The notes under the pieces: generated by a model
What the model was told of the DNA's origin: nothing
What the model saw: the letters and a program-made list of their open reading frames with translations, nothing else
The model's database searches: none
Shown here: one piece after another, positions 2,779-53,180 of the stretch
How the letters are laid out: the number at the start of each line of letters is the position of its first letter
Position numbering within the stretch: the first letter of the stretch is position 1
Source of the DNA: Candidatus Omnitrophota bacterium
GTDB taxonomy: Bacteria; Omnitrophota; Gorgyraeia; Gygaellales; Profunditerraquicolaceae
NCBI GenBank assembly: GCA_963805065.1
Contig: CAWDSS010000010.1
Coordinates: forward strand, 600,359-664,358
Direction of reading: 5' to 3'
Length of the DNA: 64,000 bases
Made by a program: the position numbers and the translations under genes

Positions 2779-3714
2779 ATGGTTAGGCCAAGAATTTTGC
2801 TTGTGGATGATGACCCGGACATTCTGGATGTTTTGGAGATTACCCTTTCTGAAGAAAACTACGAGCTCCTGAAAGTCAGGGATGGAGAAGAAGCGTTGAA
2901 GATTATTAAATCCAAGCCCCTGGATTTGGTATTGTTAGATTACGCCATGCCCAAGATGAATGGCCGCCAGGTATGCATGGAAGTAAAAAAAGACATACTG
3001 TTAAGGCACCTGCCGATAATCATGGTAACGGGAAAAGGCGAAGTAAAAGACAAAGTCGGTGGGATTGACGCAGGAGCAGATGATTATATTGTAAAGCCCT
3101 TTGAACCCAAAGAATTGCTCGCGCGCATACGTATGATTATCAGGCGCACGCAAAGAGACCTTGAGGCAAACCCGCTATCTCGCTTACCGGGGAATGTCTC
3201 AATTCTTAATGAATTATCGCGCAGGATTGAAATGAAATCTTTATTTTCCGTCTGCTACCTAGATTTGGACAAATTCAAGACCTATAACGATAAGTATGGT
3301 TTTGAGCACGGGGATGAGGTAATCCGGGAAACCGCGCGCATATTAATACAAGTCGTGCAGCAGGTAGGTAACCCAGACGATTTTATCGGCCATATTGGCG
3401 GGGATGACTTTGTGATTGTAACTGCGCCAAAAACAGTAGATAAAATATGCCAGAAGATTATTGAGGATTTTGAAAAAATATCGCCTTCCTTTTATAATGA
3501 TTCGGACAGGAAAAACGGTTTTATCCTGGCGTTTGACCGCCAGGGCAAAGAGCAGAAAATTCCGCTTTTGTCTATTTCTATCGGTGTGGTTTCAAATGAA
3601 TTCAGGAAGATTGAACACGTGGCACAAATAGGCGAGATCGGAGCAGAAGTAAAATCCCTTGCCAAACGCCTGGAAAGAAGCAACTACATCAAAGACCAGC
3701 GTAAGTCCGAGTAA
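2779..3714 (+). CDS. Response regulator, REC domain plus GGDEF-family domain with variant GGDDF signature
   Basis: REC motifs (LLVDDDPD, LVLLDYAMPKMNG, KPF). C-terminal domain has DLDKFKTYNDKYGFEHGDEV...HIGGDDFVIV, which is GGDEF-like but non-canonical. SD-like aaggag lies upstream. Confidence 0.8.
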   Translation: MVRPRILLVDDDPDILDVLEITLSEENYELLKVRDGEEALKIIKSKPLDLVLLDYAMPKMNGRQVCMEVKKDILLRHLPIIMVTGKGEVKDKVGGIDAGADDYIVKPFEPKELLARIRMIIRRTQRDLEANPLSRLPGNVSILNELSRRIEMKSLFSVCYLDLDKFKTYNDKYGFEHGDEVIRETARILIQVVQQVGNPDDFIGHIGGDDFVIVTAPKTVDKICQKIIEDFEKISPSFYNDSDRKNGFILAFDRQGKEQKIPLLSISIGVVSNEFRKIEHVAQIGEIGAEVKSLAKRLERSNYIKDQRKSE

Positions 3715-3717
3715 AAT

Positions 3718-4453
3718 AAAAGGGGACGTTTCTATTTTTGTTAGATTTAACCCTCTTCCACGTCTATTAATAGTGGAAGGGGGTGTTTTTATGCCAAGGT
3801 CAAAAAGATTAATTCCTATAAATGCAGCTATGCATATTGTGTGTAGAGGCAATAACAAACAAGATATATTTAAAGGGGAAGGCGACAAATTGCGTTATTA
3901 TTCTTTACTTAAAGAGTTCGAGGAGGAAAACAGAGTAACTATTTTTCATTATTGCCTTATGAATAATCATGTACACCTACTTGTTTGGCTTGATGAAAAA
4001 AGTAAGGTATCAAGATTTATGAAACAGGTTAATTTGACTTATTTTAATTATTTCAACAAAATTTATAGTTATGTCGGACATTTATGGCAAGGCAGGTTTA
4101 AAAGCAACATAATAGACACTGATTCATATCTTCTGCAATGCGGTAAATATATTGAACTCAACCCCCTAAGAGCCGGCTTGGTTTATCAGGCGCAAGATTA
4201 TGCCTTTAGCAGCTATAATCATTATGCAAACGGAAAACCCGATTCGTTACTTAGTAATAATCCGATGTATATTGGCTTGGCAAATTCTGAAGAACAGCGG
4301 AGAAACCTGTATATTAATTTTGTGGTAGATACTCAGTTGGTAAATAAAGATATTCTAATCAAAAGATTTAAAAGAGGTAAGCCTAAAAATATATAATGGG
4401 GACGTTTCTATTTTCCGCTAAGCTGCAGAGATGAAAAATAGAAACGTCCCCAT
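3718..4453 (+). mobile_element. RAYT unit: REP-associated tyrosine transposase gene with flanking REP arms
   Basis: Single REP arm at 3718-3739, RAYT CDS at 3791-4396, REP doublet at 4395-4453. The outermost arms are in inverted orientation. Confidence 0.7.
3791..4396 (+). CDS. REP-associated tyrosine transposase (RAYT; IS200/IS605 TnpA-like Y1 HUH enzyme)
   Basis: HUH motif in LMNNHVHLLVW and catalytic-Tyr motif GKYIELNPLRAGLV. Start chosen at ATG 3791, preceded by ggaaggggg. The longer tracked ORF from 3659 merely reads through the upstream gene end and a REP arm. Confidence 0.8.
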   Translation: MPRSKRLIPINAAMHIVCRGNNKQDIFKGEGDKLRYYSLLKEFEEENRVTIFHYCLMNNHVHLLVWLDEKSKVSRFMKQVNLTYFNYFNKIYSYVGHLWQGRFKSNIIDTDSYLLQCGKYIELNPLRAGLVYQAQDYAFSSYNHYANGKPDSLLSNNPMYIGLANSEEQRRNLYINFVVDTQLVNKDILIKRFKRGKPKNI

Positions 4454-4489
4454 TTATTTTCAGGGTTTAGGCATTGTGGTTCATTTTAG

Positions 4490-5472: not shown

Positions 5473-6067
5473 AAGACTTTTCTTTTTGGGTTACATTAAC
5501 CTTGACTGCCAAGGGTAAAGTTGGTTGCTGTTGCCAATCTTTTTTCCAAACATATGCTTTTTGCTGAAGGTCATAAATTAGATATGCAAAACTAAAGTTA
5601 TCTAATCCTTCGGCAAAGGAAGAAAATTGCGGCTCTAATTGCAATTTACCCTTAGCTAAAATATCCGCCAATTTATCCTGGCTTCGATAAAGAGCCTTTT
5701 TATCAGCATCATACGAATAAATGACCCGGTAGATTTCAGAGTCAATTACCGAAGCAAGCTGCAGCTTAATGCCCGTGCCGCTAAAGGCAACATCATTAAA
5801 AAGAAATGCCTGCCTTAATTCCCGGTTTAGTTTTTCCATTTTTAATATAAACGCGCGCTGTTGTGCCTCGGAGTCTTTGGCGCGCCGCCATACGGTCATG
5901 CCGGAATTGAAAGTCGCATAAATAGCCACAGTTACGACAGCGAATATCGTAACTGTGATAAGCAGTTCGAGAAGCGTAAATGACCTCTGGGTTCTGGGTT
6001 CTGGGTTCTCGGTTCTCGGCAAGAACCTAGAACCTAAAACCCAAAACCTAGTTCTATTTTTGTTCAT
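5441..6067 (-). CDS. Minor pseudopilin (GspJ-like) with prepilin-type N-terminal motif
   Basis: FTLLELLITVTIFAVV class III signal motif. Start set at ATG 6067 (MNKNRTRF...). The leader is encoded by heptamer palindrome 5986-6051; an alternative TTG start sits in the palindrome loop. Confidence 0.55.
   Translation of the reverse strand: MNKNRTRFWVLGSRFLPRTENPEPRTQRSFTLLELLITVTIFAVVTVAIYATFNSGMTVWRRAKDSEAQQRAFILKMEKLNRELRQAFLFNDVAFSGTGIKLQLASVIDSEIYRVIYSYDADKKALYRSQDKLADILAKGKLQLEPQFSSFAEGLDNFSFAYLIYDLQQKAYVWKKDWQQQPTLPLAVKVNVTQKEKSYVTVITIPTA
5986..6051. repeat. Heptamer palindrome (GGGTTCT)n-loop-(AGAACCT)n
   Basis: tctgggttctgggttctgggttctcggttctcgg-caa-gaacctagaacctaaaacccaaaacctag; lies within the 5' coding end of pseudopilin 5441-6067. 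Confidence 0.9.
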
Positions 6068-6554
6068 TTTGTTTTTCTTCCTGTTTCCTTGGCAAATACG
6101 TCGAAACCCAAGCATCTTTAGTTCGTCCTGCCTCCGTCCAATCTACCCTAATACAAACTTCCACTAATTTTTCAGTTAAATAATCCGGGCTGGATACTTC
6201 TTTTACTTCGCTTAGCCAGTTAAAATTTCTTGGGCCAATTTTGCGGGTTCCCGAATCAGATTCTAACCCGGGAGTTAAACCTTTTCTTTCGTATGAAACC
6301 AACTCCAGCTCAGCCAGTTTGTCTCTAGCAAGCTGTGTCGCGCTAATATAATTTTGGCTTGCGTTTAGAGCGCCTGCAGAAATTATGTAAGACTGGCTGA
6401 CTATAACCAGCCCAAAGCCCAGTATGGCTACGCTTATCATTAGTTCAATAAGCGTAAATGACCTCTGGGTTTTGGGTTCTAGGTTTTGGGTTCTGGGCAA
6501 GAACCTAGAACCTAAAACCCAGAACCTAATATTATTCCCAGTTCGTAATATCAT
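6054..6554 (-). CDS. Minor pseudopilin (GspI/H-like) with prepilin-type N-terminal motif
   Basis: FTLIELMISVAILGFGLV motif. The leader MILRTGNNIRFWVLGSRFLPRTQNLEPKTQRS is encoded by heptamer palindrome 6464-6528. Confidence 0.55.
   Translation of the reverse strand: MILRTGNNIRFWVLGSRFLPRTQNLEPKTQRSFTLIELMISVAILGFGLVIVSQSYIISAGALNASQNYISATQLARDKLAELELVSYERKGLTPGLESDSGTRKIGPRNFNWLSEVKEVSSPDYLTEKLVEVCIRVDWTEAGRTKDAWVSTYLPRKQEEKQNEQK
6464..6528. repeat. Heptamer palindrome
   Basis: tctgggttttgggttctaggttttgggttctggg-caa-gaacctagaacctaaaacccagaaccta; lies within the 5' coding end of pseudopilin 6054-6554. Confidence 0.9.
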
Positions 6555-7003: not shown

Positions 7004-7074
7004 AAAAGGGGACGTTTCTATTTTTCTTCTAATTTTAGTTTTAGGGAACGTTAAAAATAGAAACGTCCCCTTTT
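7004..7074. repeat. REP doublet
   Basis: Same arms; the spacer contains gggaacgtt. Confidence 0.9.
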
Positions 7075-10321: not shown

Positions 10322-11935
10322 CTATATTTCTACTACGCGCATAATTTCTTCTTGGGTAGTAAGGCCTTCCTGCACTAACTGCATGCCTGCGTCTTTTAAG
10401 GAACGCATGCCCAATTGTTGCGCTTTTGTCCTAAGTTCCGATGCGGTCTTACGGGCAACAATCATCTGCCGGATCTCATCGTCAATTGCCAGTATTTCAA
10501 AGATTGCCCTTCTGCCTTTGTAACCCGTATCGCTGCAATTGTCGCAACCCTTGCCTTTGCATATGGGGCATAGGAGCCGTATCAGCCTTTGTGCGATTAA
10601 TATTTCCAGGGAAGACGCCAGCAAGAATGGCTCAATGCCCATATCCAATAGCCTGGCAATTCCCGCCGGAGCGTCATTGGTATGCAAGGTAGAAAATACC
10701 AAATGCCCGGTAAGGGCAGAGCGTATTGCCAGGTCTGCGGTTTCAGAATCGCGGATTTCTCCAATCATCATAATATCCGGGTCATGGCGTAGGACGCTGC
10801 GCAGGGTATTGGCAAATGTCAAGCCCACTTTGGGATTTACCTGAATCTGAGTTATTCCTTCTAAGGCATACTCCACAGGGTCCTCTATGCTGATAATCTT
10901 TACTTCCGGCTTATTCAGCCTGCTCAAAGAGGCATACAGGGTTGTGGTCTTTCCGCTTCCTGTTGGCCCTGTGAGCAGGATGATTCCATGGGGCTTTTGC
11001 AGAGCCTTTTTTATTTTTTGCAGGTCATTAGGGTCGAAACCTATGGCGTCCAAATCCAACAGAATCTGGGTAGGCAATATTCTAATCACCACATTTTCCC
11101 CGAAATATCCGGGGATTATAGAAATCCTTAAATCAACTTCCTGGCCGTCCTGAAGGCGTACTTTAGTCCGGCCGTCCTGGGGTATACGGTGCTCTACCAC
11201 ATCAAGGATGGACATAATTTTTATACGCGAGACAATTGCCGGCTCTATATAATATATATCCTCCGGCACCCTGAATTCGCGCAATATTCCGTCGATGCGG
11301 TAACGTAAATGCACCTTGTTCAGGTAGGGCTCGATATGGATATCGGTTGCGCGCAGGCGTATTGCCTCGGATAGAATCTGATTTACCAAATTTATAACTG
11401 ATGCCTCCTCCGCGCTTTTTTCAATATCTTCTACTTTTTCTTTGGCAATCAGGGTTTCTTTGTCATCTTTCTTGCCGGTGATAATTCTATCTACTGTCCC
11501 TGCCACCATGCCGTAGTGTTTATGTATTGCCTCCTCGATTTCAGCGCGCGTGCTTAAAACCCTTTGCACATTAAACCCTAAATCCAGCTTGATATTTTCC
11601 GCCAGCCACACATCCATGGGATTACTGACGGCAATGGTCAGCGTCTTATCTTTTAGCTCAAGGGGCATAAACCCGTAATGCTGCACGAATTTTACCGGCA
11701 CAGCCTTCACTGCTTCTTGAGAAATGGGCCTTTCTTTAAGGCGCGGGAAAAATGGCATGCGGAACTGCTCTGCCAAAACCTCCAGCAACTGCCCTTCCTT
11801 CAGGTGCCCTGCTTTTATGAGGGCCTTGCCTAAAATCTCTTCATTCTCCGGAGATTTCTTCAATGCCTCGCTTAACTGCTCTTTGGTAATAAATCCCTTG
11901 TTTATTAATATTTCTCCCAATAATTTTACAGCCAT
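10322..11935 (-). CDS. gspE: Type II secretion / type IV pilus assembly ATPase (GspE/PilB family)
   Basis: Walker A GPTGSGKTTTLYA, Asp and His boxes (IMMIGEIRD, TGHLVFSTLHTN), tetracysteine motif CPICKGKGCDNC, and an N-terminal GspE_N-like domain. Confidence 0.92.
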   Translation of the reverse strand: MAVKLLGEILINKGFITKEQLSEALKKSPENEEILGKALIKAGHLKEGQLLEVLAEQFRMPFFPRLKERPISQEAVKAVPVKFVQHYGFMPLELKDKTLTIAVSNPMDVWLAENIKLDLGFNVQRVLSTRAEIEEAIHKHYGMVAGTVDRIITGKKDDKETLIAKEKVEDIEKSAEEASVINLVNQILSEAIRLRATDIHIEPYLNKVHLRYRIDGILREFRVPEDIYYIEPAIVSRIKIMSILDVVEHRIPQDGRTKVRLQDGQEVDLRISIIPGYFGENVVIRILPTQILLDLDAIGFDPNDLQKIKKALQKPHGIILLTGPTGSGKTTTLYASLSRLNKPEVKIISIEDPVEYALEGITQIQVNPKVGLTFANTLRSVLRHDPDIMMIGEIRDSETADLAIRSALTGHLVFSTLHTNDAPAGIARLLDMGIEPFLLASSLEILIAQRLIRLLCPICKGKGCDNCSDTGYKGRRAIFEILAIDDEIRQMIVARKTASELRTKAQQLGMRSLKDAGMQLVQEGLTTQEEIMRVVEI

Positions 11936-11980: not shown

Positions 11981-12042
11981 AAAAGGGGACGTTTCTATTT
12001 TCCTTCTGCTTAAGAAACGTTAAAAATAGAAACGTCCCCTTT
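11981..12042. repeat. REP doublet
   Basis: Same arms; lies between the atpD stop and the gspE start. Confidence 0.9.
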
Positions 12043-12062
12043 ATTTTGCAGAATGAACCTTA

Positions 12063-15835: not shown

Positions 15836-15898
15836 AAAAGGGGACGTTTCTATTTTTAACGTTTCCCAACTAGAAGAAAAATAGAAACGTCCCCTTTT
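15836..15898. repeat. REP doublet
   Basis: Same arms. The spacer aacgtttcccaactagaag is the reverse complement of the spacer at 16826, so the element is in the opposite orientation. It lies between the atpF(b) and atpA genes. Confidence 0.9.
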
Positions 15899-15950
15899 CT
15901 TTGGGTCCCCTTTTCTTTGGGTTTTGTCATTTGCCATTACACTTTACACA

Positions 15951-16675: not shown

Positions 16676-16794
16676 TCTAGGTTCTAAGCTATGGCTTAGC
16701 CTTCTAAGGTTCTAGGCTATGGAATAGACTTCTGGGTTCTAGGTTATGGGTTCTGGGCTATGGGCAAAAACCTAGAACCTAAAACCTAGAACCT
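16676..16794. repeat. Heptamer/27-mer structured array abutting the atpF(b) start codon
   Basis: Contains the ~80-nt unit shared with 17144-17228 and 17472-17556, plus one extra ggttctaagctatggcttagccttct module. Confidence 0.9.
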
Positions 16795-16825
16795 ACTTCG
16801 TAAACAAATTGTATACTATCAGTAG

Positions 16826-16888
16826 AAAAGGGGACGTTTCTATTTTTCTTCTGGTTGGGAAACGTTAAAAATAGAAACGTCCCCTTTT
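16826..16888. repeat. REP doublet
   Basis: Same arms; spacer cttctggttgggaaacgtt; lies between the atpE(c) and atpF(b) genes. Confidence 0.9.
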
Positions 16889-16928
16889 CTTTGGGTGTTG
16901 TCATTTGTCATTACACTTTACACAATTA

Positions 16929-17141
16929 CTATTTCGTAAATAGATTGTACACAATTAACAACGCTAATACTGCGATTGCCTCGGCGAAAATAAAAGCCAA
17001 AATCATGGCTATGAATATCTTGGCAGATGCCGAAGGGTTGCGTGCCACGGACTTGACCGCCGAGAAACCGACCAAGGCAATTACAGCTGCCGGTCCTGCG
17101 GTGCTTAGGAACATGGTTATGATTAGAATTAAGTTCTGCAT
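16929..17141 (-). CDS. atpE: ATP synthase c subunit (proteolipid)
   Basis: 70-aa two-helix hairpin with loop ARNPSA (cf. ARQPE) and a carboxylate in FIFAEAIAVLALL. Confidence 0.8.
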   Translation of the reverse strand: MQNLILIITMFLSTAGPAAVIALVGFSAVKSVARNPSASAKIFIAMILAFIFAEAIAVLALLIVYNLFTK

Positions 17142-17143
17142 TG

Positions 17144-17228
17144 TCTAGGTTCTAGGCTATGGAATAGACTTCTGGGTTCTAGGTTATGGGTTCTGGGCTA
17201 TGTGCAAAAACCTAGAACCTAGAACCTA
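17144..17228. repeat. ~85-nt heptamer-based structured element filling the atpC-atpE spacer
   Basis: gtctaggttctaggctatggaatagacttctgggttctaggttatgggttctgggctatgtgcaaaaacctagaacctagaaccta. Confidence 0.9.
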
Positions 17229-17229
17229 A

Positions 17230-17469
17230 TTATGTTTCCACAAATATCTTTAATGCATTGCTCTTCATAAACGCAATGCCGTCTTTAATTAAAACCTGGT
17301 TCTGGGTTCTGGGTTCTGAGGAACACCTAATATTACCTTTTTTTAGCCTCATCAGGAATGGCTGATGAAAATCCAATACGCAAACTTCTCCGTCTTCAGT
17401 GGGTAAAGTCACCTGCCTTGCATTTCCTTCCCAGAGTACGCCTTTGGGTTCGAGTATACTTACCTGCAT
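17230..17469 (-). CDS. atpC: ATP synthase epsilon subunit, N-terminal beta-sandwich domain only
   Basis: 79 aa. LEPKGVLWEGNARQVTLPTEDGEVCVLDFHQPFLMRLKKGNIR aligns with the epsilon N-domain pattern (GE.g.L..H.P.l..L..G). It lacks the C-terminal helical hairpin. A heptamer repeat encodes SSEPRTQNQ. Confidence 0.65.
   Translation of the reverse strand: MQVSILEPKGVLWEGNARQVTLPTEDGEVCVLDFHQPFLMRLKKGNIRCSSEPRTQNQVLIKDGIAFMKSNALKIFVET
17296..17320. repeat. Direct heptamer run inside atpC
   Basis: ctggttctgggttctgggttctgag, read in-frame as SEPRTQNQ. Confidence 0.8.
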
Positions 17470-17471
17470 CG

Positions 17472-17556
17472 TCTAGGTTCTAGGCTATGGAATAGACTTC
17501 TGGGTTCTAGGTTATGGGTTCTGGGTTATGTGCAAGAACCTAAAACCTAGAACCTA
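17472..17556. repeat. ~85-nt heptamer-based structured element abutting the atpC start codon
   Basis: Near-identical to 17144-17228, with a few substitutions. Confidence 0.9.
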
Positions 17557-17571
17557 ATTCACTATAATTAT

Positions 17572-19272: not shown

Positions 19273-19409
19273 TTAATGTCAAATGACAAAGCACAAATGA
19301 AGAAAAGGGGACGTTTCGAAGAAAAGGGGACGTTTCTATTTTTAACACCTCCGGTTTAGCAGAAAAATAGAAACGTCCCCTTTTCTTTGGATGTTGTCAT
19401 TTGTCATTA
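19273..19409. mobile_element. Short composite MITE-like element
   Basis: ttaatgtcaaatgacaaagcacaaa - REP doublet - ctttggatgttgtcatttgtcatta. The ends are inverted repeats of each other. Confidence 0.65.
19303..19384. repeat. REP doublet preceded by a partial duplicated half-arm
   Basis: gaagaaaaggggacgtttc is duplicated, followed by a full doublet at 19322-19384. Confidence 0.9.
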
Positions 19410-20111
19410 CTCCTTGTTTTCTTCCGAAAGCTTTCTCTCCTGCTCCGACTTCGCCTGCTGCTGCCAGATAATATAAAAGGTAAGTCCCAATATTCCTAAG
19501 AAAACGATGATAAAAATAATTATTTTCCAGGTAAGCTTGGCTAACCCCCGAGGCTGGACTTCTGCAAGCAAAGTCTTGGCTGAAAGCAAATCGTTCTTTG
19601 CTGATTCCAGCTGGCTTACGCAATAACGGTAATCCGATATATGCTGCGAAGGGTTATTCGCCGATGCCTTCTGCTTTTCTTCCACTTCATTAAGTTTCTT
19701 TTCTACGTCGCCGTAAAGAACATTGGCTTTATCGGCATAGCCTGTTTTGGCAAATCCGCTAAAGACATCTTTGGCTTCTTTACGAAGCGCCAAAATCTGT
19801 GCCTCATCAACGACCCAGACATCTTTAATCTCAATTTCCTTTTCCAGCACCTCTTTAGGCTTAAGCTCATACTCACCGGAGACATAATAAGTGCCCAGTT
19901 GCGCATCATAAGCAACCTCTAAATCTTCCTTATAAATAATGTCCTCGGGCTTTACTTCCAGGGGTAGATATACTTTTATCGGCACGGTTTGCGTCGATTC
20001 TTCAGAAGGATTTACCGCTACTACTCGAAGAGTAATGCTGGCTTGTGCAAGGCTTGCAAAAAATAACAGGCAAAAAAAAGTGATTAAGGAAAAGAAAATC
20101 GCTTTTTTCAA
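19407..20111 (-). CDS. Hypothetical bitopic membrane protein (signal peptide plus C-terminal TM)
   Basis: 234 aa with N-terminal signal sequence FFSLITFFCLLFFASLAQA and C-terminal TM WKIIIFIIVFLGILGLTFYIIW. It lies 64 nt downstream of the giant gene. No family recognised. Confidence 0.5.
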   Translation of the reverse strand: MKKAIFFSLITFFCLLFFASLAQASITLRVVAVNPSEESTQTVPIKVYLPLEVKPEDIIYKEDLEVAYDAQLGTYYVSGEYELKPKEVLEKEIEIKDVWVVDEAQILALRKEAKDVFSGFAKTGYADKANVLYGDVEKKLNEVEEKQKASANNPSQHISDYRYCVSQLESAKNDLLSAKTLLAEVQPRGLAKLTWKIIIFIIVFLGILGLTFYIIWQQQAKSEQERKLSEENKE

Positions 20112-20175: not shown

Positions 20176-23100
20176 TTATTTGAACTCAAACCAAGTCTGC
20201 ACAACGGGTTTCTTGGCAACGTTCTCAACCATCTTGCTGTTTAAGTCCATTGCCGCCTTTAATTCCTCGGTCTTGTTCTTTAAGTAAACCATATCGTCTT
20301 TCTTTTCTTTGGCAACTTCATATAATTTCTTTAAATTGATGCCTCCCGCTCCGCTCATCTTATCTATCTGGGCGCTGATATCGTCCAATTGTTTGTACAC
20401 TGTCTCAACCTGAGTCAACACTCCCTGCGCCTGCTCCGCCTTCCCCGTAAGGCCCTGGCTAAGCTTTGTCAATGCATCGTCAACGAGGTTGAATTGCGAA
20501 TTGAGCGTATCGGCAACTGACTTCAATCCTGTGATGCCTGTGGTTGAGCCTAAAACCGCGGAAACCTGCCCAGCTACATCTGCAATATCAGTGTTGTAAA
20601 CAGTGATCACCTGAGCATCTACGGTGCCCTTAGTAGTCTCAGAACACACTACCGTAAAATCACCCGTGCCCCAACCCGCAAGGAATGTAACAGTGTAATC
20701 GTAAACTCCGCTTGTTCCGTTTTCTATCATACGCCCCTTGGAAATTTTTAACATGTTCTTGGGGTCATAAACATCGATAGTGGGGGAAAGGCCCGTGGTT
20801 GTGCGATAGGAAATTATAACTGCCTGGCCTGACTTTACCGCGGTATCGCGGTTAAGAATGCCCGACTGCACCTGCGGTTTAATCTCGGTGTTTAGTGTCC
20901 CGGTTATATTATTTTGCGCCGCAGTTATAGCGTTAGGAATAGCAGTATTTGTGGCAGTTAAAATCTGGGAAGTCTGTTGCGTTATGGCTGAAACCTGCGG
21001 CTGTATAGCGTTTACAACTGAATCCTGTATTGTTTTCTGAATGCTCTGAGTCTGGTTAGCTATGGCTGCAGTGGTAGTATTTATGGCATCGGTAGCTGTC
21101 TGTATCATCTGCGTCATTTGTTTTAATTGCTCGGATATGCTGATGTCGAATGTTGCGCCTGAGGTATAAGTGCTTCTAGTGCCGCTTGTGCCGCCGTAGC
21201 TAATGCTACAGTTTGCAAAATACGTTTTACCGGACTCAAGCCCGCCGGTAGTAGTGGCATTGGGCACCTGTATAAAATAACTGCCTGTCGTTGGATCTGC
21301 TGATGCAGCTGTTGCTGTCCATAACGTCGATGAGCCGTAAGACACCGCAACAGTAGCTGAGCCCAGCGCATTGATAGAGTCACTAACCACTAAATAGCCT
21401 TGTTTCTCAAGCCACAACCTTATCATCAACGTATTCGTGTCTTCATTGTAAGAAAAGCTGCTCTGGACCCTGTATTCCTTAGGGGTTGTTGACTCCATAA
21501 GCACATCTACCAACGCATCCTGACTTACTATCCTGTCGACATCGCTAGTATCATAGTATCCTGATTTCGACCAGATAGTTGTGTATGTGCCTTGAGGGTA
21601 ACGCCAGGTAAATGTAGTTGAGCCGGTCGCCACATCCAGCGCTCCCACTATAACATTCCAGTATGTTGAACCTCCTCCCGAAGAATCTACGCCTAATCCG
21701 GTGGTTAATAACGTCATGGTCTCATCATCCCTGATTCTCCAGGTGAGGGTGTAATAAGAAATCGTAAATGCAGGAGATACGGCAAATATTGTCGCATCTG
21801 ACGTTGAACTGACTCTTAGTTGGACATAATAATCTGCTGGCGGTTCAGCCGGCAGATTGGCGAAATTAGGATCGGGCACTGTCCAGGCATAGCCTGAGAT
21901 ATTGTTTGCATTAGGAACGTTAGTAAAGGAGTTAATAGTAGTCCAGCTAGCAAGAGGTAATGTCGACTGATCAGTGGCTGTCCTATACTCTAATTTCAGC
22001 GACGGAAATGCCCCTTTGTTATACCAAGTTATGGAATGAAGTGTATTTGCCTTCCAGTCTGTGGAATTTAAAAATTCCTCGCTGTTAACAGTTTCATCCC
22101 TGAAATCAAAACCACCGGTGATCCTAAACCATCCCGGACTCACCGCAGTAGCAAGTAAGTTACCATTGGAATCATATCCTCTTACCCGCATTTTCAAAGT
22201 AGATGTGGCAGTTGCATTGTCCGGCACTGTCCAGGTATAACTACCTGTATAGCTACCGCTATATGCATCAGCAGTATCGGATGTACCCTTAGGAATGTTG
22301 ACCGCAATAACTGTGGCGGTTTCAGTACCGTCTAAAGAGCCGTCTTGATCGGCATCATTCCAGTAATCAATTGCTACATGATCAATAGCCAAGCCGCGTA
22401 TTGTCCAGTTAATCGTCATGGGATCCTCAACCACGTAGGCAACGCCATTTGGCGGAGGGGTGAGGAACGTAGCTATCGTAGGAGCGGCAATGACTGTAAA
22501 GTTAGCAACTGATGCGCCGCTGGAATTAGGCCTTGAGCCATCCATGACTCTTAGGCGCTCATTAATTCCCTGAACAATAGCCGGGACAGTCCAAGTGTAG
22601 GTCCCGCTATTAGCCAGAGAGTTGGCAAAAGGAGCAGCATAGTTTTGGCCGCTGTTGGTAGAATATGCTATTTGTAGGGCATTGGCAGTTATGGAACCCT
22701 GGGTTGTCCAGGCAATAGGCGCTAAATCGCCCACAGCCCAAACTTCGCCGCCATTAGGACGAATCATGCTAACCGTGGGTATCTTGACAGTCCATTGCGC
22801 TGATACCTCTACCGGCGTTGCGCTATTTCCTGAGTCGGTAATCCTGACTCTGGCCGGCGAATCGCTGGTTATTGCAAAGGAGTTTGGTATTGCCCAGTTG
22901 TAGGAAGTTGCACCATGCATGGCTCCTGAGTAAATTTGCGAATAAGTTACGCCGTTGTCGTATGAATATTCCAAAAGAAGGTTATCGCTTACCAGGCCTT
23001 GCTTTGTCCAGCTAATAGTCTGGGTAGTTCCCATTATCCAGGCATCAGTTGTAGTCGGATGGTTTATGCTGGTAATCATGGGCGGAGGCAATACTGAGAA

Positions 23101-26100
23101 ATTAGCGTTGGAAACAGCCACTACGCTGGGATTCGCAGCATCGCTTATCCTTATCCTGGCAGTTGCGGTAACTGTTGCCGGAGAAAAGTTATAATACGCG
23201 CCGTTATTTGGCCAGTTGGACTCTATGGTTGCCCAGGTCTGATTAGTTGTATAATCCGGGCACCATTCAATCTTCACGTTACCCACTGTTCCTGTGTTTG
23301 TCCATTTAATCCCGCCTGTAGGATTTACCTGGTCGCTATATCCTAGATTATAAGTCTGGTATTGGGTGAGCTCTTCCCCGCCATTTGGCTGCAGTATCCC
23401 TATTGCAGGCAAGGCAATGATAAACGCCGACGGAGAAACCGAAACATTAGACAGGCCGTTTGGCTGGGAAACCCGCACCAGGCAAACCTGTTGATTGCCG
23501 ATAGAATAATCTGCCGGGATAGTCCAGCTGAAGCTTCCGGTATTTCCGACAATGCCGTCATTAAGCGTGTCATATGATTCAACTACGGTTGTCCAGGAAG
23601 TGCCGTAGTCAGTAGAATATTCCAATTTCACAGTAGCCATGGAAGCCGAGCCGGCTGTGGTTGTCCAGGTAATATTATGAGTAGTCCCGATAGTCCAGTT
23701 TTCACCTCCCACAGGAGAAATTAAGTTTAAGTTACCTTTGATATTAAATGTCCCGGAGGTTGCAGAAACAGTGAGATCATTAGCATCCTCTACTTGTATC
23801 TTGCAGTCGCTGGATATATTATCAGGCACTGTCCAGGTATAATTAGTTGCTGCATTGGCATTAGGAGTAACGCTCCAGTTCGCAGAAGCATTCAATACTG
23901 TCCAGGTGGGAGTGCCTGCGCTGGCATTGGTGGTATACAAAAGTTTTACACGCGTAATATTTCCCGTGGTTGTCCAGGTGATTACATTGCCTGTGCCTAC
24001 TGTCCAGCTTGCACCTAGAGCAGGCGGGTTAGGGGCGCTCACTGAGCCGTTTATCTGGAAGGTAGTAGTCGTGTCTTTATAAGAAGTGGAGTCTGTAGGA
24101 ACGCGCGTATCTATTATTCTTATCCTTAATGCAGTATTAATGTAGCTGGCATCAACAGTTGTAGGCACAGTCCAGACGCACGAACCTGAACTGTTACCAA
24201 TATTCCAGCTGCTTAAGTCAGCGGAGGAAATTGTTTGGGCGCTAGTAAGATTAACATCACCATCTCTATAATAAATCAGCTCCACATTAGCCTGGTCAAT
24301 TCTACCGGTAGTTGTCCAGTTAATTGTCAGGGCACTTCCTGCTGTTACTGCTGAGCCTGATAAATTCACGTTGTTAAACATGCCACAAATGGTAAAGGAA
24401 TTAGAAGTAGCAGCTGTTGTACTCTGCCTGTATGAATCAAACACCTTTATCTGGGATGCTCCCACATCATTGGGAACTGTCCAGGTAAAGGTGGATGTGC
24501 CATTGGAATTACTGGTTACTGAAGCACCGCCGGAAACATTTGTAAAACTACCGCCGCCTGACGTAGAATTATATTGTATGGTTGCCGCATAAGTAGCGCT
24601 GCCTTCGCCACCAGCTGTGCTCCAGGTAATTGCCGGGGTTTCAGTTACCACCTGATAGCCGGATAAATTACCCACAGTAATTGCCGGCTGTGTAATTGTC
24701 ACCTGGGGTAGCAATGTGTTTGTCATCTGGGTTTGCGTCCTAGTCATATCCCTGATTCTTAGTTGCGCGCTGGCATTAGTAGCTGCTGCGCCTAAGGCTG
24801 CTTGCGGCACTGTCCAGGAGAAACTTGCCGCACTAGGATACCCCCTTGGCTGGCCTGTGGCAATGGCTGTCCAGTTTGTGCCTGAGTTTGTAGAGTATTC
24901 AACATTAATATTGTCATTGGCATTGGCAGAGCCTGTCCAGGTAATGGTATTTCCCGCCGAACCTACCCGCCAGGATGGATTTGTCAAAGGAGAAGTAATG
25001 GTTAGGGTGGGCTGTGTGCCAATGTTAAAAGGATTTGAAGTAGACACTGCCACTGAAGGATAATTGGGATCATATATTCTCACTTGGGCAGTTGAGGTTA
25101 TTGCATTGGGTATAGTCCAGCTAAAGCTTCCGCTGCTTCCACTATTAGGCACCTGGGTGAAACTGTTTTGCGCGGTATGATTCATATCATACCAGTTGCT
25201 GCCGTCAGTGGATAATTGCAGATTTACTGGCGTAAATGTCCCGGCAGATGTCCAGGTAATATTCACTGAATCATTCACCACAACATTAGGTGGCTGAGCC
25301 AAAGTTATGCTACCGACTAAATTAAACTCACCTGAAGTCTTGGTAACAACAGTGGATCTAGAGGCATCTACAATCTTAACGGAAGTAGCGCCGATATCGT
25401 CGGGAATTGTCCAGGTCCAGCTTGTAGAACCGTTAGATGTATTAGCCAGATTAGTAGCAATTGTTGACCAGCTTGTGCCTGCCCCATAGCTAAGGTCGTA
25501 AGAGATATTTACTTGAGAAACCGCTCCGCTTGTCGACCAGGAAATTAGGTTAGCTGTAGCTACTGCCCAATTGTTGCTTGAGCTGGGGCTGTTAATTGTA
25601 ATCTGCGGGGCAATTGCCGTCCATGCGGCATCAGGGCTGACAACAGCCCCTAAAACTGCTGAGCCAGCACGCGAGGCATCGCTAACCTCGATTAGTCCTG
25701 CGCTAGTAGAATTTGTCCATAACAATGCTGCTTGGGGCACTGTCCAGAAATAAGTGCCGTTTTGTGCTGCGGTTGTAGTCAAAACTGTCCAGCCCATATC
25801 GCTAGTATTAGCCCTTAACTGTACATGGCCATCGTTTACACCTGCAGAGGCTGTCCAAGTAATGGAATAGCCTTTGCCCACCTGCCACTGCGGAGTTCCC
25901 GTCGGAGAAGTAATGGTAATGGAAGGCTGGGCTTTTACAGTATAAGCAGTAGAGGATTGGCCTAGGCTGGCCGAGCGGGATGAATCTGTATCTTCCACCT
26001 TAATTTGCGTCTGATTTATGCTCACGGCATCAGAAGGTATGGTCCAGTTAAAGGACGCAGTAGTATTTGCCAAAGCACCCGCTCCGCTACAGGCTGTCCA

Positions 26101-29100
26101 GGTTGTGCCATTATTATTTGTGTAAGAAACCTTAACGCTATTGCCGCTGCTTAAATTACCTACCCAGGTCCAGGAAATAGTTGCCGTGTCGCCAACATAC
26201 AGCGCATCTGCGCCTAAAGGCTGAGTTAGAGTAACATTGCTAATTTTGGGAACTGCTATGGTTATAGGTAATGTAACAGAAATATTCGTGGGGTCTGAGC
26301 CGTTAATTGCCGGGGCGCGCGTTCCGGTAATCCTTATTTGGCTTGCGCCAGATGAGATATACGCATCGTTGTTAGGAACAGTCCAGTAATAAGACTTGGT
26401 GAAGTTATTATCGTATGTGCCTGTGGTAAGAAGAGTAATATTGCTATCATTGGGATCAGTGTTATCAACAGTCCAGTTAGTATAACTTGCATTCGGCACT
26501 GTCCAGGTTGAGCCGTCAGGAGAATATTCTACTTTTACCTGCGTAATCTTACCCACGGTTGACCAGCTGATTTGATTATTGCTGGTGCCTAATGTCCAGG
26601 TAGTTCCGCTGGCTGGCAAAACAGTAGTAATATTCGCTGCTACGGTAAATGCAGATGATGTACCTGTAATAGTATTATCCGCATTGGAGATAATCTCTAT
26701 TTGGGCATTGGTTGAAGGAGCTAACCAGACGTTCCAGTTATAGGTCCCGCTATTGACACTTGAGTTTGCTAAATTGGGGGTTTGCGCTACGCCATTCTCA
26801 ACATACTTAATAGTTACAGCAGGGCTATTAGTTGGATTAGCCTTGTCTCCGATATTTGTCCAGGTAACGCTGGAATAGGTTTTGCCTCCGATTATCCTCA
26901 CGCCTGCAGCAGGCGTATCAACCCTAAACTTGGCATTGTTCAAAACCTTGAACACGTAAGATAAGGCTTGTATGCCTTGGGTCCTGGCAGGGGTAGAACC
27001 ATCCTCAATCCTTATCTGTCGGTTAGTGCCTACTGCCGCTGCAGGGATAGTCCAAACATAAGAGCCGTTGTCTGTTAGCCCTGCAACACTCCAAAGCACA
27101 GTTGCTCCGCTAATACAGTCAATTTCAATATTATTTCCTAAATTGCGTTCAGTCGTCCAGGTAATGCTACGCGCATCATTCTGCACTAAAGTGATTGCAC
27201 CATCACTATCTTCGGGCTCTGTTGACAGCGGGAATGGATTTAAGGTAATGGTCGGGTAGCGCACAGTAAAGGCATTCTTAGTATAATCATACACGGTGCT
27301 GGGGTTGTTAGAATCCTCGATCTTCAGGCCATAGCTAGTGGAAGAATATGCAGTAGGAATTACCCACGCATAGCTTCCGTTATTTGTCTCTTGTCCAATC
27401 AATGTCCAGGTAGCGCTAGTAGGAGTAGTTGGGTTAAAATCAGTAGCATAATATAGGTTTGCTGTGGCTGCCTTTGTTCCTACAGTAGTCCAGGTAATTG
27501 TCCAGGTATCTCCGGCAATCTGAGGAGAAGTTACTGCATTTAAGCTAATAGTGCTGGAGGGAATAGCGAAGGTATTTGAGACAGCTGTCCAATTAGTAGT
27601 AGGCGATATTTCTGAGCGGGAGGCGTAAGTGATTTTTATCTGGGCGTTGCTTGTGGCTGCGCTCAACTCCGGAATAGTCCAGGAGGTAGAATTTGCCTGT
27701 GTATCGCTAACTCCTGTTGGCTGAGGATTGGCTACTGTTCCTGTTCCAATGTTCGTCCAGGTTATTCCATCTGACGTATACCAGATAGTTATTTGATTGG
27801 CTGCTGCATAATCAGTAGTCCAGGCAATAGTCTGGTTGGTTCCCATTCTCCAGGAAGAACCGCTATTAGGCGATTGAATAGTAATTGAGGGGGGCGATAC
27901 AATCTTAAACGCGCTATTTGAGGTATCTGAAACTGTTGCGCCGTGCATACTTACCATTACCAAACAATTATTTGAAACGTCATTTGGTATAGAATACCAA
28001 TTGTAGGTCCCCAAATTAGCTTGTTGTGTATCAATGGTTGTCCAATCTGTGCCGCCATCACTAGAATAATACAAATCTATGGGTGTACTAGGAATTAAAC
28101 CTGTGGATGTCCAAGTGATATTTCTATTAGTATCTCCCACCACCCACATCTCTGAGCCGGTGTTAGGCGCAGTAACTCTAACTCCCTTAACTGTAAACCC
28201 TGCAGAGGTTGTCCAGGCTACATTATTAAGCGCGGTTATGCTTGTAGGCTGAAGTTTTATCTGGGCGCTATTAGTAGCTGTGGCAATCTGGTCTCCGGTA
28301 ATTGTCCAGGTATAACTTGTGCCGCTTTGGTTAGTGGCAATTGTCCAGCAAGTAGAATTATCTACAGTCCAGTTTGTGCCATTGGAAGAATACAAAATAT
28401 CTAACGGCTCATTAAAGCCGGCTGTTGACCAGGTAATATTTGAGTTTGTATTTGCCGTCCAGGATGTCCCTGCCGCAGGCGCAGTAATGCCTAAATTAGT
28501 GATTTTTATGGTCCATGTCTGCGTAGATGCCTGGCTATTATTTACATTATCCACAGCTGCCACTGACCAGGTATATATTCCCGGGTTTATGGTATTGGCA
28601 GTAATGGTAGAGCCTGTAGTCCAAGTAGCAGAGATATTGTCTTTATTAACACTCCCGTTTACATATAGTTGGTATTTACCTAAACCTGAGCCGGCATCTG
28701 AACTAGCAGACCAGCTAAAAGCAGGCGTGGTAGACGTAGTCCAGATAGAAGAAGTTGGGCTGGTTAAGCTAAAGCTGGCTGGCGCAGTAAGATCTTGAAT
28801 CACTGAAAAATTATTAGAGACTGTGGTTAAGCCTGCGTTATTGGTTACTGTAAAGCTAACCGAACCATTCTGAGTAGAATTTGCCGTCCAGGTATAGTTA
28901 GCAGTCCAGGTAGTGCCGCTACTCGTAACATCAAATGCAGTGTTTCCTGTACTGAACCCGGCCAAACCCGGAAAAGTAATCTTTTGAATTCCCGAGACTG
29001 GATCTTGTGCTGTAGCAATAATCCTGAATGAACCGGAAGTTCCGCCCGTATTATAATAAATCGGGCCGCTAGCACTCGATACGTATTGATAAATAGAGCT

Positions 29101-40099: not shown

Positions 40100-40154
40100 T
40101 TATCAACATACCTGATTTTATTGCACAATATACTCGATCTTCCAAGGCTACTCT

Positions 40155-40233
40155 TTGGGTTCTGGGTTCTGGGTTCTGGGCTGTAAATATTGACCGGGTT
40201 TTAGCTAGAACCGAAAACCTAGAACCTAGAACC
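40155..40233. repeat. Heptamer palindrome upstream of the DUF2341/giant-gene operon
   Basis: ttgggttctgggttctgggttctggg-23 nt-ctagaaccgaaaacctagaacctagaacc. Confidence 0.9.
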
Positions 40234-40311
40234 GAATTCAGTATGTACATTGTCAGTTTGGACATTTCTAATCTCCAATTTCGGCAATTTTACGCTCCAT
40301 AGCACCTTCAG

Positions 40312-41563: not shown

Positions 41564-41617
41564 TTGGGTTCTAGGTGTTCGACTCTCTATTATTACTTCT
41601 GGGTTCTGGGTTCTTGG
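41564..41617. repeat. Heptamer units (GGTTCT orientation) between the RR start and the four-helix-bundle gene end
   Basis: ttgggttctaggtgttc ... cttctgggttctgggttcttgg. Confidence 0.85.
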
Positions 41618-41805
41618 TAATCATTTACATGTTGCCTGGTTTTTCCTTCTGCAATGTTTGAAGAAATAGAAACAGCGCATCTTCTCATTTGATTAATCAA
41701 GCCGTACATTTCCTCTTTAGGAAAATCTTTGGTAAGTATATAAACTTTTTTAACGAACTCTATGGATTTTTTCCAAACTTCCAAGTCTTTATAGCTTTTT
41801 ATCAC
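41593..41805 (-). CDS. Four-helix-bundle protein (23S rRNA intervening-sequence protein family), truncated
   Basis: SYKDLEVWKKSIEFVKKVYILTKDFPKEEMYGLINQMRRCAVSISSNIAEG matches the N-terminal half of the family. The ORF ends in heptamer-encoded YQEPRTQK, so about half the usual length is missing. GTG start. Confidence 0.55.
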   Translation of the reverse strand: MIKSYKDLEVWKKSIEFVKKVYILTKDFPKEEMYGLINQMRRCAVSISSNIAEGKTRQHVNDYQEPRTQK

Positions 41806-41817
41806 TTCTAATTATCC

Positions 41818-41849
41818 CCCAGAACCTAGAACCTAAAACCTAGAACCTA
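41818..41849. repeat. Heptamer units (AGAACC orientation) between the HK stop and the four-helix-bundle gene start
   Basis: cccagaacctagaacctaaaacctagaaccta; includes the HK stop codon (TAG). Confidence 0.85.
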
Positions 41850-43205: not shown

Positions 43206-43206
43206 T

Positions 43207-43317
43207 TGGGTTCTAGGCTATGGTTTAGACTTCTGGGTTCTAGGTTCTCGGCTATGGCTTAGACTTCTGGGTTCTAGGTTCTCGTGCTAGAACCTAGAAC
43301 CTAAAACCTAGAACCTA
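43207..43317. repeat. Heptamer/27-mer structured array filling the secretin-HK spacer
   Basis: Two ggctatgg(y)ttagacttctgggttctaggttctcg modules plus a terminal palindrome arm. The array spans from the secretin stop codon to the HK start codon. Confidence 0.9.
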
Positions 43318-49102: not shown

Positions 49103-49165
49103 AAATGGGGACGTTTCTATTTTTAATGTTTATTAATCAGCAGAAAAATAGAAACGTCCCCATTT
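49103..49165. repeat. REP doublet (TGGGG/CCCCA variant)
   Basis: AAATGGGGACGTTTCTATTTTT...AAAAATAGAAACGTCCCCATTT. The variant is shared with the RAYT-adjacent copy at 4395-4453. Confidence 0.9.
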
Positions 49166-53016: not shown

Positions 53017-53180
53017 TTAATGTCAAATGCCAAAGTACAAAATTCAAAATAAAGGGGACGTTTCTATTTTTAACGTTTCCTAATCAGAAGAAAAATAGAA
53101 ACGTCCCCTTTTCTTTGGTTGTCGAATTACTTAGATTAAGGGATTTATTTTGACGTTGGGATTTTGTCATTTGACATTTT
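53017..53180. mobile_element. Composite MITE-like element (TIR AATGTCAAATGMCAAA ... TTTGTCATTTGACATT around a REP doublet)
   Basis: The terminal inverted repeats ttaatgtcaaatgccaaag / ttttgtcatttgacatttt are reverse complements. The internal REP doublet is at 53051-53112. Confidence 0.7.
53051..53112. repeat. REP doublet
   Basis: Same arms; core of the composite element at 53017-53180. Confidence 0.9.

Follow-up and report, generated by a model that had tools for sequence, protein, structure and literature searches.

The transposase gene and the ends of its unit

The window analyzed here, a stretch of 64 kb taken as a whole, holds one copy of a transposase gene that lies between inverted repeats, together with numerous hairpins built from the same repeat. 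Type IV pilus/pseudopilin genes are also present in the window. The gene-carrying unit consists of the following features.

3718–3739, + strand: left terminal inverted repeat, AAAA plus GGGGACGTTTCTATTTTT, starting 4 nt past the stop of a GGDEF response-regulator gene
3740–3748, + strand: conserved GTTAGATTT box from the left arm to the 5'-UTR hairpin, nearly invariant in 45 aligned homolog leaders
3750–3784, + strand: 5'-UTR hairpin, CCCTCTTCCAC / GTGGAAGGGGG, a predicted fold that pairs a Shine-Dalgarno GGAGG-like sequence
3791–4396, + strand: gene for a Y1/HUH tyrosine transposase (201 aa), by motif of the TIRYT type (subclass 2.1), identified by Pfam Y1_Tnp, Foldseek and motifs
4395–4454, no strand assigned: 3' hairpin of the transposase unit, with a + arm at 4398–4415 (T18C), an 18-nt spacer and a - arm at 4434–4451

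The first-pass annotation had read ORF 3791–4396 as a RAYT transposase from its HUH and Tyr motifs. Both motifs are present in the product (MNNHVHLL and GKYIELNPLRAGLV), which scores 67.3 bits against Pfam Y1_Tnp (curated cut-off 23) and belongs to the Y1/HUH transposases, in the RAYT clade. A phmmer search of the protein against the PDB gave no match, so that a profile or fold search is required to find one there. A profile search picks up 4er8, the E. coli TnpA-REP, and Foldseek places the same structure first among PDB matches of the AF2 model (4er8_A, E 2.4e-7, TM 0.60/0.71), followed by the IS608 and ISDra2 TnpA proteins; the 2a6o and 2xm3 folds agree. The best NCBIfam model is REP_Tyr_transpos (NF047646), at 63 bits under its equivalog cut-off of 80, and transpos_IS200 is not reached (29.6 bits versus a cut-off of 55). 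We found 2941 homologs, and in the homolog protein alignment H60/H62 and Y120 are invariant. The signature motifs are NHVH for HUH (NNHVHLL), WQ (HLWQGRF), YIELNP for the Y motif (KYIELNP) and FSSY. The C terminus reads RGKPK and is AT-hook-like, with a weak match to Pfam AT_hook (E 0.15); neither the window protein nor five 225-aa homologs match Bac_DnaA_C, HTH_23 or HTH_28 in Pfam at E ≤ 1. The tail is shorter than in those homologs, the whole protein having 201 versus 225 aa. The 3' hairpin has not truncated the gene: the short tail reflects an internal 24-aa deletion that also occurs in the homologs P0007 and P0002.

The arms are terminal inverted repeats of about 22 bp starting with GGGG, AAAA-GGGGACGTTTCTATTTTT ... 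AAAAATAGAAACGTCCCC-TTTT, that bracket the gene. A solo arm 5' of the gene and an inverted doublet 3' of it are present as first described. The doublet, which had been taken for two REPs, is actually one long hairpin of two repeats and a spacer, and its outer - arm (4434–4451) is the right terminal inverted repeat. A stop codon followed by a full hairpin, as here, is also seen at five homolog loci (L119, L154, L191, L139 and L159), the majority architecture being a - arm alone with the TAG stop inside it. With this minority 3' architecture and the shorter tail, activity of the window copy is not assured.

The leader hairpin is kept across homologs, with double changes in six of nine predicted pairs. 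Covariation is no more than modest, since the ribosome-binding site occupies one strand and the loops contain indels in the alignment. The same hairpin lies upstream of a 41%-identical paralog with different arms, and its loop, ACGTCTATTA, looks like the arm center.

Hairpins dispersed through the window

The arm GGGGACGTTTCTATTTTT (18 bases) has 23 copies in the window at one mismatch or fewer, against 0.11 expected, a number reached in no shuffle. They make up 11 hairpins and one solo arm, that at 3722–3739, 5' of ORF 3791–4396. Inverted arm pairs begin at 2697, 4398, 7008, 11985, 15840, 16830, 19326, 45721, 49107, 53054 and 60332, about one per 5.8 kb, exactly where the first-pass annotation had listed inverted doublets at about one per 6 kb. 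Apart from the 3' hairpin of the transposase unit, the copies are as follows; + and - refer to the orientation of the spacer.

2693–2755, +: supplies the final 15 codons of the histidine-kinase gene 1212–2741, along with its stop
7004–7074, -: 27-nt spacer
11981–12043, -: dispersed hairpin
15836–15898, +: after it, a tandem duplication (16 nt) of the right edge
16826–16888, -: dispersed hairpin
19299–19384, +: hairpin at 19322–19384, preceded by a partial tandem duplication, GAAGAAAAGGGGACGTTTC (19299–19317), with its junction at TTC^
45717–45779, -: dispersed hairpin
49103–49165, +: TGGGG/CCCCA flank variant
53050–53112, +: adjoins tRNA-Val
60328–60390, -: overlaps the stop codon of gene 60388–60849

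A unit, counted with its AAAA/TTTT flanks, is 63 nt long (71 nt for the copy at 7004) and consists of two inverted arms around a spacer of typically 19 nt. As single-stranded DNA the hairpins are predicted to fold at about -24 kcal/mol (z of -8 to -9.5), whereas a solo arm folds only weakly by itself; in the predictions the hairpin needs both arms. The arms are 99% identical among the window copies and the spacers 69%, and we found no decayed arms in the 64 kb. The spacers occur in both orientations, as had been noted; that at 15840 and the reverse complement of that at 16830 agree at 18 of 19 positions. The two spacer subfamilies proposed at first are alignable variants of a single family to which all 11 hairpins belong, with the consensus AACGTYTCCYAAYYAGMAG. 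Restriction of the TGGGG/CCCCA flank variant to the transposase-adjacent copy and the 49103 copy holds.

All of the hairpins are intergenic or overlap the last codons of a gene, and at least eight of 12 sites overlap a stop codon or sit no more than 75 nt downstream of one. Their edges carry no target-site duplications. Rfam at the gathering threshold returns only four tRNAs over the window; the hairpins are thus not a known RNA family. A CRISPR array was ruled out by the irregular spacing, the inverted-pair units and the absence of cas genes.

Homologous loci in other genomes

We compared 75 distinct homolog loci (46–67% identity), 62 of them with both flanks available. The same arms lie on both sides, + upstream and - at the 3' end, in 52 of these 62 independent loci. 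This recurrence identifies the dispersed repeat as the cognate flanking sequence of the transposase. Of 69 loci, 57 have a + arm at a distance of 60–175 nt before the ATG. In 34 of 59 the end of the right arm falls 10 nt after the stop codon, which there is always a TAG inside AAAAATAGAAACG. The two ends vary together: at the variable arm position 8 (T/G/C), left equals right in 46 of 52 loci, where 21.6 would be expected if they were independent. DNA homology between loci begins at the left arm (window 3714–3722) and the neighboring genes differ; the best non-transposase DNA match of the window among the compared loci is L010, at 66% identity.

A near-identical arm flanks homologs as distant as 46% identity, and arms differ between protein clades. 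One locus (L112) has two paralogs, 37% identical, with GGGGACGGTTC on one and GGGGTCAGAATTATTTTT on the other. In cultured relatives (35–40% identity) the gene is flanked on either side by GGGGACAGATTTATTTTCCCT, on a P. aeruginosa plasmid, or by GGGGTCAGAGCAAA, in Iodobacter. At another locus, L127, two unit copies 96% identical lie on one 6.5-kb contig, which indicates that the gene-carrying unit itself duplicates.

More than 100 stretches, drawn from dozens of MAGs with GC contents of 0.34–0.69, have the arm. The exact 18-mer is present in dozens of species-level MAGs over this range, and the AT-rich arms persist unchanged within genomes of 65–68% GC. Spacers elsewhere are genome-specific. 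Asymmetric arm pairs (for example GTTTCT with a right arm GCGTCT, in L002 and L024) recur whole within a genome, implying that the arm pair is copied as a unit. The arm has no match in viral contigs and thus gives no sign of phage carriage, and a literature search for its sequence returned chance primer matches only. A new REP sequence in a self-consistent REP/RAYT system had been proposed at first. The association of gene and cognate repeat stands, and neither of the outcomes named at first as refuting the reading was observed: the ORF passes the Y1_Tnp model, and its repeat accompanies the homologous genes. But the arm is not lineage-specific: a great many uncultured bacteria, distantly related to one another, retain it.

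Partial duplications and a candidate cut site

Partial duplications recur widely in the form [X GGGGACGNTTC][X GGGGACGNTTC TATTTTT], with the junction at TTC^T, a possible and indirect footprint of cleavage by the protein. There are 26 truncated cores with a second core behind them, and in 15 of the 26 the gap is exactly the preceding flank; the window and roughly a dozen distinct loci contribute these 15. Cleavage by E. coli TnpA-REP falls between C and T (PMC3479197), and by analogy the nick here is most likely at C^T within TTC^TATTTTT. In the recurring duplications just one of the breakpoints is fixed, which leaves replication slippage at the hairpin as another possible origin for them.

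Relation to known systems

TIRYT proteins and their TIRtrons (Di Nocera et al. 2013, PMC3733652) correspond to TnpA-Y1 subclass 2.1 (Quentin et al. 2018, PMC6006769) and to RAYT group 1 (Bertels et al. 2017, PMC5581495). The key motifs of the subclass are NHVH, W[EQ] and YIELNP, together with SS in the proximal tail (Table 1 of PMC6006769). Judged against that table, the NHVH, WQ, YIELNP and FSSY motifs of the window protein place it in subclass 2.1. Other TIRYT traits are shared as well: long terminal inverted repeats that begin with GGGG (in relatives here, GGGGACAG or GGGGTCAG), repeats that are also dispersed, often as dimers, occasional duplicate copies, and plasmid-borne relatives. The published repeat consensus at TIRYT gene ends is GGGGWSAS, i.e. 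GGGG[AT][CG]A[CG] (PMC3733652). The arms GGGGACAGATTTATTTTCCCT and GGGGTCAGAGCAAA of the cultured relatives agree with it, and GGGGACAG, GGGGTCAG and the GGGGACAGTCC arms of L141 and L176 match it at eight of eight positions. The window arm differs, starting with GGGGACGT, with the core GGGGACGNTTC, and matching six of the eight. TIRYT proteins are also reported to carry a C-terminal helix-turn-helix of the Bac_DnaA_C, HTH_23 or HTH_28 type, in contrast to the short, AT-hook-like GRP tail here. The repeats differ too. Quentin et al. report no REP-like sequences near subclass 2.1 genes (PMC6006769), and Bertels et al. find that the flanking 16-mers of group 1 occur only about 12 times (PMC5581495), but the hairpins in our window are dense, and one 18-mer is kept across very many species.

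The resemblance to TnpA-REP/REPtrons and to the Pseudomonas RAYT-REPIN systems (subclasses 2.2 and 2.5) is partial. The Y1/HUH fold (4er8), the Y...NP motif and the candidate nick at C^T are common to both, as is a gene bracketed by the dispersed intergenic repeat of its genome, pairs of which form hairpins; the dispersal of the cognate repeat, a canonical RAYT trait, is borne out by the 11 hairpins in 64 kb, in intergenic regions or at gene ends. In other respects the classic RAYT-REP arrangement claimed at first does not fit. Repeats at canonical RAYT genes (subclasses 2.2, 2.4, 2.5, 2.7 and 2.8) are short imperfect palindromes tagged at the 5' end with GT[AG]G; the arm here contains neither the GTAG guide tetranucleotide nor GTGG, and a single unit forms no palindrome. 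The protein has NHVH in place of DHLH as its HUH motif, falls below the NCBIfam equivalog cut-off and has subclass 2.1 motifs. The arm is shared across phylum-level diversity instead of being species- or genus-specific.

With IS200/IS605 elements (IS608, ISDra2) the system shares the HUH/Y1 family and, by analogy, would share chemistry on single-stranded DNA with DNA hairpins as recognition elements. In IS200 a leader stem-loop occludes the ribosome-binding site, and a stem-loop over that site is predicted in the leader here. The protein differs in having Y...NP, not Y...Q, and 200–225 rather than about 150 aa; tnpB, often part of IS200/IS605 elements, is absent near the window gene, several near-identical copies are usual for those elements, and the ends here are perfect inverted repeats instead of distinct subterminal hairpins.

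Proposed mechanism and alternatives

Taken as a whole, the locus is probably a TIRtron, a subclass 2.1 Y1 transposase unit accompanied by miniature hairpins and presumably acting through single-stranded DNA. The mechanism that we propose is drawn by analogy to IS608 TnpA and E. coli TnpA-REP. The 11 hairpins would be miniature, non-autonomous versions of the gene unit, REPIN- or MITE-like in shape. In transiently single-stranded DNA the two arms would pair into a long hairpin whose conserved foot, GGGGACGNTTC, the transposase may recognize. The catalytic tyrosine would then nick, most likely at the C^T, and transfer the strands, so that hairpins (in trans) and occasionally the gene's own unit could be copied or moved. 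The leader hairpin probably buries the ribosome-binding site and would limit translation.

We think it improbable that the locus is instead a canonical REPtron/REPIN system, in which a domesticated, vertically inherited, single-copy RAYT maintains REP doublets as in E. coli or Pseudomonas. The gene is indeed single-copy in the window, intergenic hairpins are abundant, TnpA-REP and REP_Tyr_transpos are the best structural and NCBIfam matches, and two inverted units with a spacer in a hairpin correspond to the REPIN definition (PMC3337134). Yet the GT[AG]G tag is absent, a lone arm does not fold by itself, 63 bits is under the cut-off of 80, and the protein has the motifs of subclass 2.1 rather than 2.2 or 2.5. 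Furthermore, the near-identical duplicates at L127, the plasmid-borne relatives and the differing neighborhoods indicate an IS-like unit. It is barely credible that the hairpins derive as MITEs from an ordinary DDE transposon, or act as a DNA-uptake-type signal, and have a Y1 gene as their neighbor by chance. MITEs would account for terminal inverted repeats with a short interior, but target-site duplications are missing and the window has no DDE transposase with these ends. Uptake signals might be suspected from the pilus genes, and Neisseria uptake sequences often form inverted pairs, but such sequences are mostly intragenic and roughly 1 per kb, whereas all copies here are intergenic at about 1 per 6 kb. 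Moreover, neither idea explains why the same arms bracket a Y1 gene in 52 of 62 loci or why the arm co-varies with the protein clade.

The contrast between arms and spacers, together with the lack of decayed arms, is not predicted by simple selfish copy-and-decay. Possibly, although on the unlikely side, the hairpins persist chiefly because they serve the host, for instance as protein-binding sites or as intrinsic terminators acting in both directions, and the transposase merely seeded them or is itself regulated by them; this is compatible with the TIRtron explanation. Arm constancy in the window speaks for it, as does the persistence of the exact 18-mer over the whole range of GC contents, but constancy is equally expected if only intact arms are transposase substrates. 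The stem foot is GGGG/CCCC and is flanked on both strands by A-runs and T-runs, which is terminator-like; a simple terminator scan calls no hairpin, but it is blind to them because their loops exceed its 3–8 nt limit. Many sites lie at or just downstream of stop codons, but the intergenic regions are short, which makes that proximity uninformative, and there is no Rfam match. A bolder version, which we regard as unlikely, is a phylum-spanning, host-integrated system in which the TIRYT protein would continuously maintain or re-homogenize GGGGACGNTTCTATTTTT hairpins via TTC^T nicks and the cell would benefit from them, for instance through bidirectional termination. It would account for the 99%/69% contrast, the absence of decayed arms and the AT-rich arms in GC-rich genomes. 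If it were true, the largest and least understood RAYT group would count as a REPIN-type "replicator" system, and no repeat sequence known from systems of this kind would be more widely conserved.

Significance

Under the TIRtron interpretation, the locus is a real member of an already described element type, and what is notable is mainly that so many uncultured bacteria, distantly related to one another, retain an identical 18-base sequence. Among RAYT-like groups, subclass 2.1 (group 1) is the largest; published accounts disagree on whether it has cognate repeats, and we know of no biochemistry on it. The locus and its 52 two-armed relatives offer a clean candidate substrate, a conserved 12–18-nt arm with a probable C^T nick site, as well as a right repeat that contains the stop codon and a leader hairpin that is likewise conserved. 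They also indicate that in uncultured lineages, Omnitrophota among them, hairpins of subclass 2.1 can form dense populations. For annotation, the arm/hairpin motif accounts for about one in five intergenic regions of the window and for one chimeric gene end, that of the histidine kinase 1212–2741.

The dispersed hairpins and their transposase

The locus very probably represents a TIRtron, that is, a subclass 2.1 Y1 transposase unit, with the dispersed hairpins as its miniature, non-autonomous versions. Its central features are as follows.

3722-3739, + orientation: solitary arm
3750-3784: leader hairpin
3791-4396: transposase gene (201 aa), with tRNA-Leu just 3' of it on the opposite strand

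As the first-pass annotation proposed, one arm family forms inverted doublets across the window. The 18-mer GGGGACGTTTCTATTTTT occurs 23 times at no more than one mismatch, as 11 inverted pairs plus the solitary arm, whereas dinucleotide-preserving shuffles gave a mean of 0.11 and never reached 23. The TGGGG/CCCCA flank variant is indeed common only to the transposase-adjacent copy and the 49103 copy. The two spacer subfamilies described there, however, are variants of a single family: all 11 units, oriented by spacer (5 one way, 6 the other), fall under the consensus AACGTYTCCYAAYYAGMAG. From its flanks, the unit reads AAAA-arm-spacer-arm-TTTT and is 63 nt long, the unit at 7004 (71 nt) being the sole exception; as ssDNA it is predicted to fold into stems of 22-27 bp (about -24 kcal/mol, z -8 to -9.5). 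Every arm copy is intergenic or overlaps a gene's last codons.

The gene product carries the HUH (NHVH) and Tyr (YIELNP) motifs already noted in the ORF. It passes Pfam Y1_Tnp (67 bits, cut-off 23) but falls under the curated cut-off of the NCBIfam canonical REP-associated transposase model (63 versus 80 bits), and under that of the IS200 model (30 versus 55). The best solved relative of a profile of 11 homologs is E. coli TnpA-REP (4er8); the AlphaFold model (mean pLDDT 66, core predicted well) also matches 4er8_A best (E 2.4e-7, TM 0.60/0.71), followed by IS608 and ISDra2 TnpA. The motifs NHVH, WQ, YIELNP and FSSY constitute the subclass 2.1 signature, and subclass 2.1 equals Bertels' RAYT group 1 and the TIRYT of Di Nocera et al. 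2013 (Quentin et al. 2018, PMC6006769). TIRYT genes are flanked by terminal inverted repeats with GGGGWSAS, not by GTAG-tagged REPs, an arrangement termed TIRtron (PMC3733652). The family comprises 2941 proteins at E ≤ 1e-5, mostly of 225 aa, named "transposase [Candidatus Omnitrophota]" where the source supplies a name.

The earlier reading as a RAYT-REP system thus stands in part. As in a REPtron/REPIN, a Y1 transposase is bracketed by inverted copies of a hairpin repeat that the genome itself carries between its genes; unlike the canonical REP family, the locus has no GTAG-tagged palindromic REP, and the protein misses the NCBIfam equivalog score. With subclass 2.1/TIRYT it shares protein motifs and the GGGG-repeat, although the C-terminal HTH domain reported for TIRYT was not found in this protein.

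Arms and gene in homologous loci

We drew 75 distinct homolog loci (46-67% protein identity) from assemblies and metagenome contigs, 62 of them with both flanks present. The expected association of repeat and gene is borne out: 52 of the 62 have arms on both sides, the + arm lying 60-175 nt before the ATG and the - arm at the 3' end. Six have neither arm under the strict pattern, some of these bearing variant arms (GGGACCGTTTCTATTTT in L127; GGGGACAGTCC in L141 and L176). The arm never varies at positions 2-4, 6 and 11, and position 8 (T, G or C) agrees between left and right in 46 of 52 loci, versus 21.6 expected under independence. Nucleotide homology between loci starts at the left arm, and the genes beside the transposase are unrelated between genomes. 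In 34 of 59 loci, exactly 10 nt separate the stop from the end of the right arm, and the stop is always TAG, within AAAAATAGAAACGTCCCC; the window shows a minority 3' architecture, a stop codon and then a complete hairpin, as do L119, L154, L191, L139 and L159.

Plasmid-borne relatives from cultured bacteria (35-40% identity) have repeats that fit the published TIRYT consensus: GGGGACAGATTTATTTTCCCT in P. aeruginosa, where the right repeat again contains the stop and the C terminus carries GRPRLE, and GGGGTCAGAGCAAA in Iodobacter. Two paralogs in the metagenomic locus L112, 37% identical, carry arms GGGGACGGTTC and GGGGTCAGAATTATTTTT, respectively. The arm shifts along with the protein among remoter relatives. 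Two copies 96% identical on a single 6.5-kb contig (L127) indicate that the gene-carrying unit itself duplicates.

Between the diverged L112 paralogs, in an Omnitrophota MAG, lies an RHH_3/Fic pair (10877-11484), a toxin-antitoxin-like module; the plasmid relatives likewise adjoin HipA or MazEF modules. At two metagenome loci (L165, 3741-4934; L178, 1559-2752), a conserved 397-aa protein comes after the transposase homolog; its N terminus is Y1-like (HFHLL, YIHLNP), and a hydrophobic segment lies in its long C-terminal extension.

In most homologs, the left arm is followed by GTTAGATTT and then a hairpin before the ATG, which pairs the Shine-Dalgarno GGAGG (3' strand) with its complement (5' strand). 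Double changes at 6 of 9 predicted pairs give modest evidence of covariation. The loop, ACGTCTATTA, resembles the arm center, ACGTTTCTATT, and the same leader precedes an L112 paralog with different arms. IS200 has a translation-limiting leader stem; by analogy, we infer a similar role for this hairpin, which may also be a binding site for the transposase.

Distribution of the arm

With one genome per species scanned, the exact 18-mer arm occurs in at least 107 stretches; the viral collection gave no match. Among the matches listed, the stretches derive from dozens of MAGs, deposited mostly as Omnitrophota but also as Aminicenantes, "Planctomycetales," Atribacterota, Elusimicrobia and more, with GC of 0.34-0.69; a transposase homolog lies directly beside the arms in 3 of 107. 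Spacers (5-80 nt) vary in length and sequence between genomes and are alike inside one genome. Asymmetric arm pairs reappear as whole units inside one genome (L002/L024), indicating that copying acts on the entire hairpin. Some lineages retain only the outer 11-12 nt (GGGGACGNTTCT), with a different inner part, as in L149, L164 and L179.

Proposed mobility and maintenance

By analogy to IS608 TnpA and E. coli TnpA-REP, the substrate would be ssDNA with its two arms paired; the enzyme would recognize the conserved stem foot, and its tyrosine would then nick. Unrelated genomes repeatedly show partial tandem duplications patterned as [X GGGGACGNTTC][X GGGGACGNTTC TATTTTT...], X standing for 5-10 nt of left flank. 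In 15 of 26 truncated cores that precede a second core (drawn from roughly twelve distinct loci and window 19299-19343), the intervening gap exactly equals the preceding flank. The junction falls nearly always right after TTC, a footprint suggesting a candidate nick position there; TnpA-REP cuts between C and T (PMC3479197). Because the other breakpoint lacks a consensus, the duplications could instead reflect slippage at the hairpin. A 16-nt tandem duplication (GTCCCCTTTTCTTTGG twice, 15895-15926) after the right edge of hairpin 15836-15898 has a junction different from the recurring TTC^T.

The 22 arms of the 11 window hairpins share 99.0% pairwise identity (20 exact, 2 with T18C), versus 68.7% (range 0.47-0.95) for their 19-nt spacers, and no arm with 2-3 mismatches was found across the 64 kb. 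This contrast is at odds with simple selfish decay: either only copies that have kept intact arms survive or spread, or each arm is itself under constraint. Given the GGGG/CCCC stem foot, T-runs on both strands, and the position of at least 8 of 12 sites over a stop codon or no more than 75 nt past one, a role as putative terminators is conceivable.

A histidine-kinase ORF (1212-2741) extends 15 codons into hairpin 2693-2755; as HATPase_c stops at residue 494 of 509, the C-terminal tail and stop codon of the ORF come from the hairpin. The motif TTGTCATTTGTCATTAC has 7 copies at no more than 3 mismatches in the window, versus 0.25 expected, and adjoins several hairpins, pointing to a longer flank common to some copies.

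15924-15940, 16898-16914, 19273-19289, 19394-19410, 53017-53033, 53164-53180: copies of TTGTCATTTGTCATTAC

Dispersed, dimer-forming repeat families have already been described for TIRYT (PMC3733652), and what is new in a TIRtron reading is a matter of degree: about one hairpin per 5.8 kb of the window, high for a group reported with few or no cognate repeats; an arm kept among homologs down to 46% identity and over the whole GC range; and concrete testable features, namely the stop codon within the repeat, the leader hairpin and the C^T junction.

Other repeats in the window

A second pervasive family consists of heptamers GGGTTCT/AGAACCT in inverted, hairpin-forming blocks.

5985-6054, 6463-6532, 16696-16813, 17136-17239, 17464-17567, 38682-38713: heptamer blocks
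39411-39487, 40153-40235, 41565-41621, 41812-41849, 43193-43321: heptamer blocks

They overlap or directly precede what look like the 5' ends of functionally unrelated genes on the minus strand: an ATP synthase b/delta fusion, a LuxR-type response regulator, a histidine kinase, a DUF2341 protein, and pseudopilins in which the N_methyl motif begins only at residue 28-41. Long DNA repeats of ~160-175 nt (34594-37611) lie within a giant 6162-aa ORF (20176-38664, - strand) that has Kelch/beta-propeller repeats and DUF2341.
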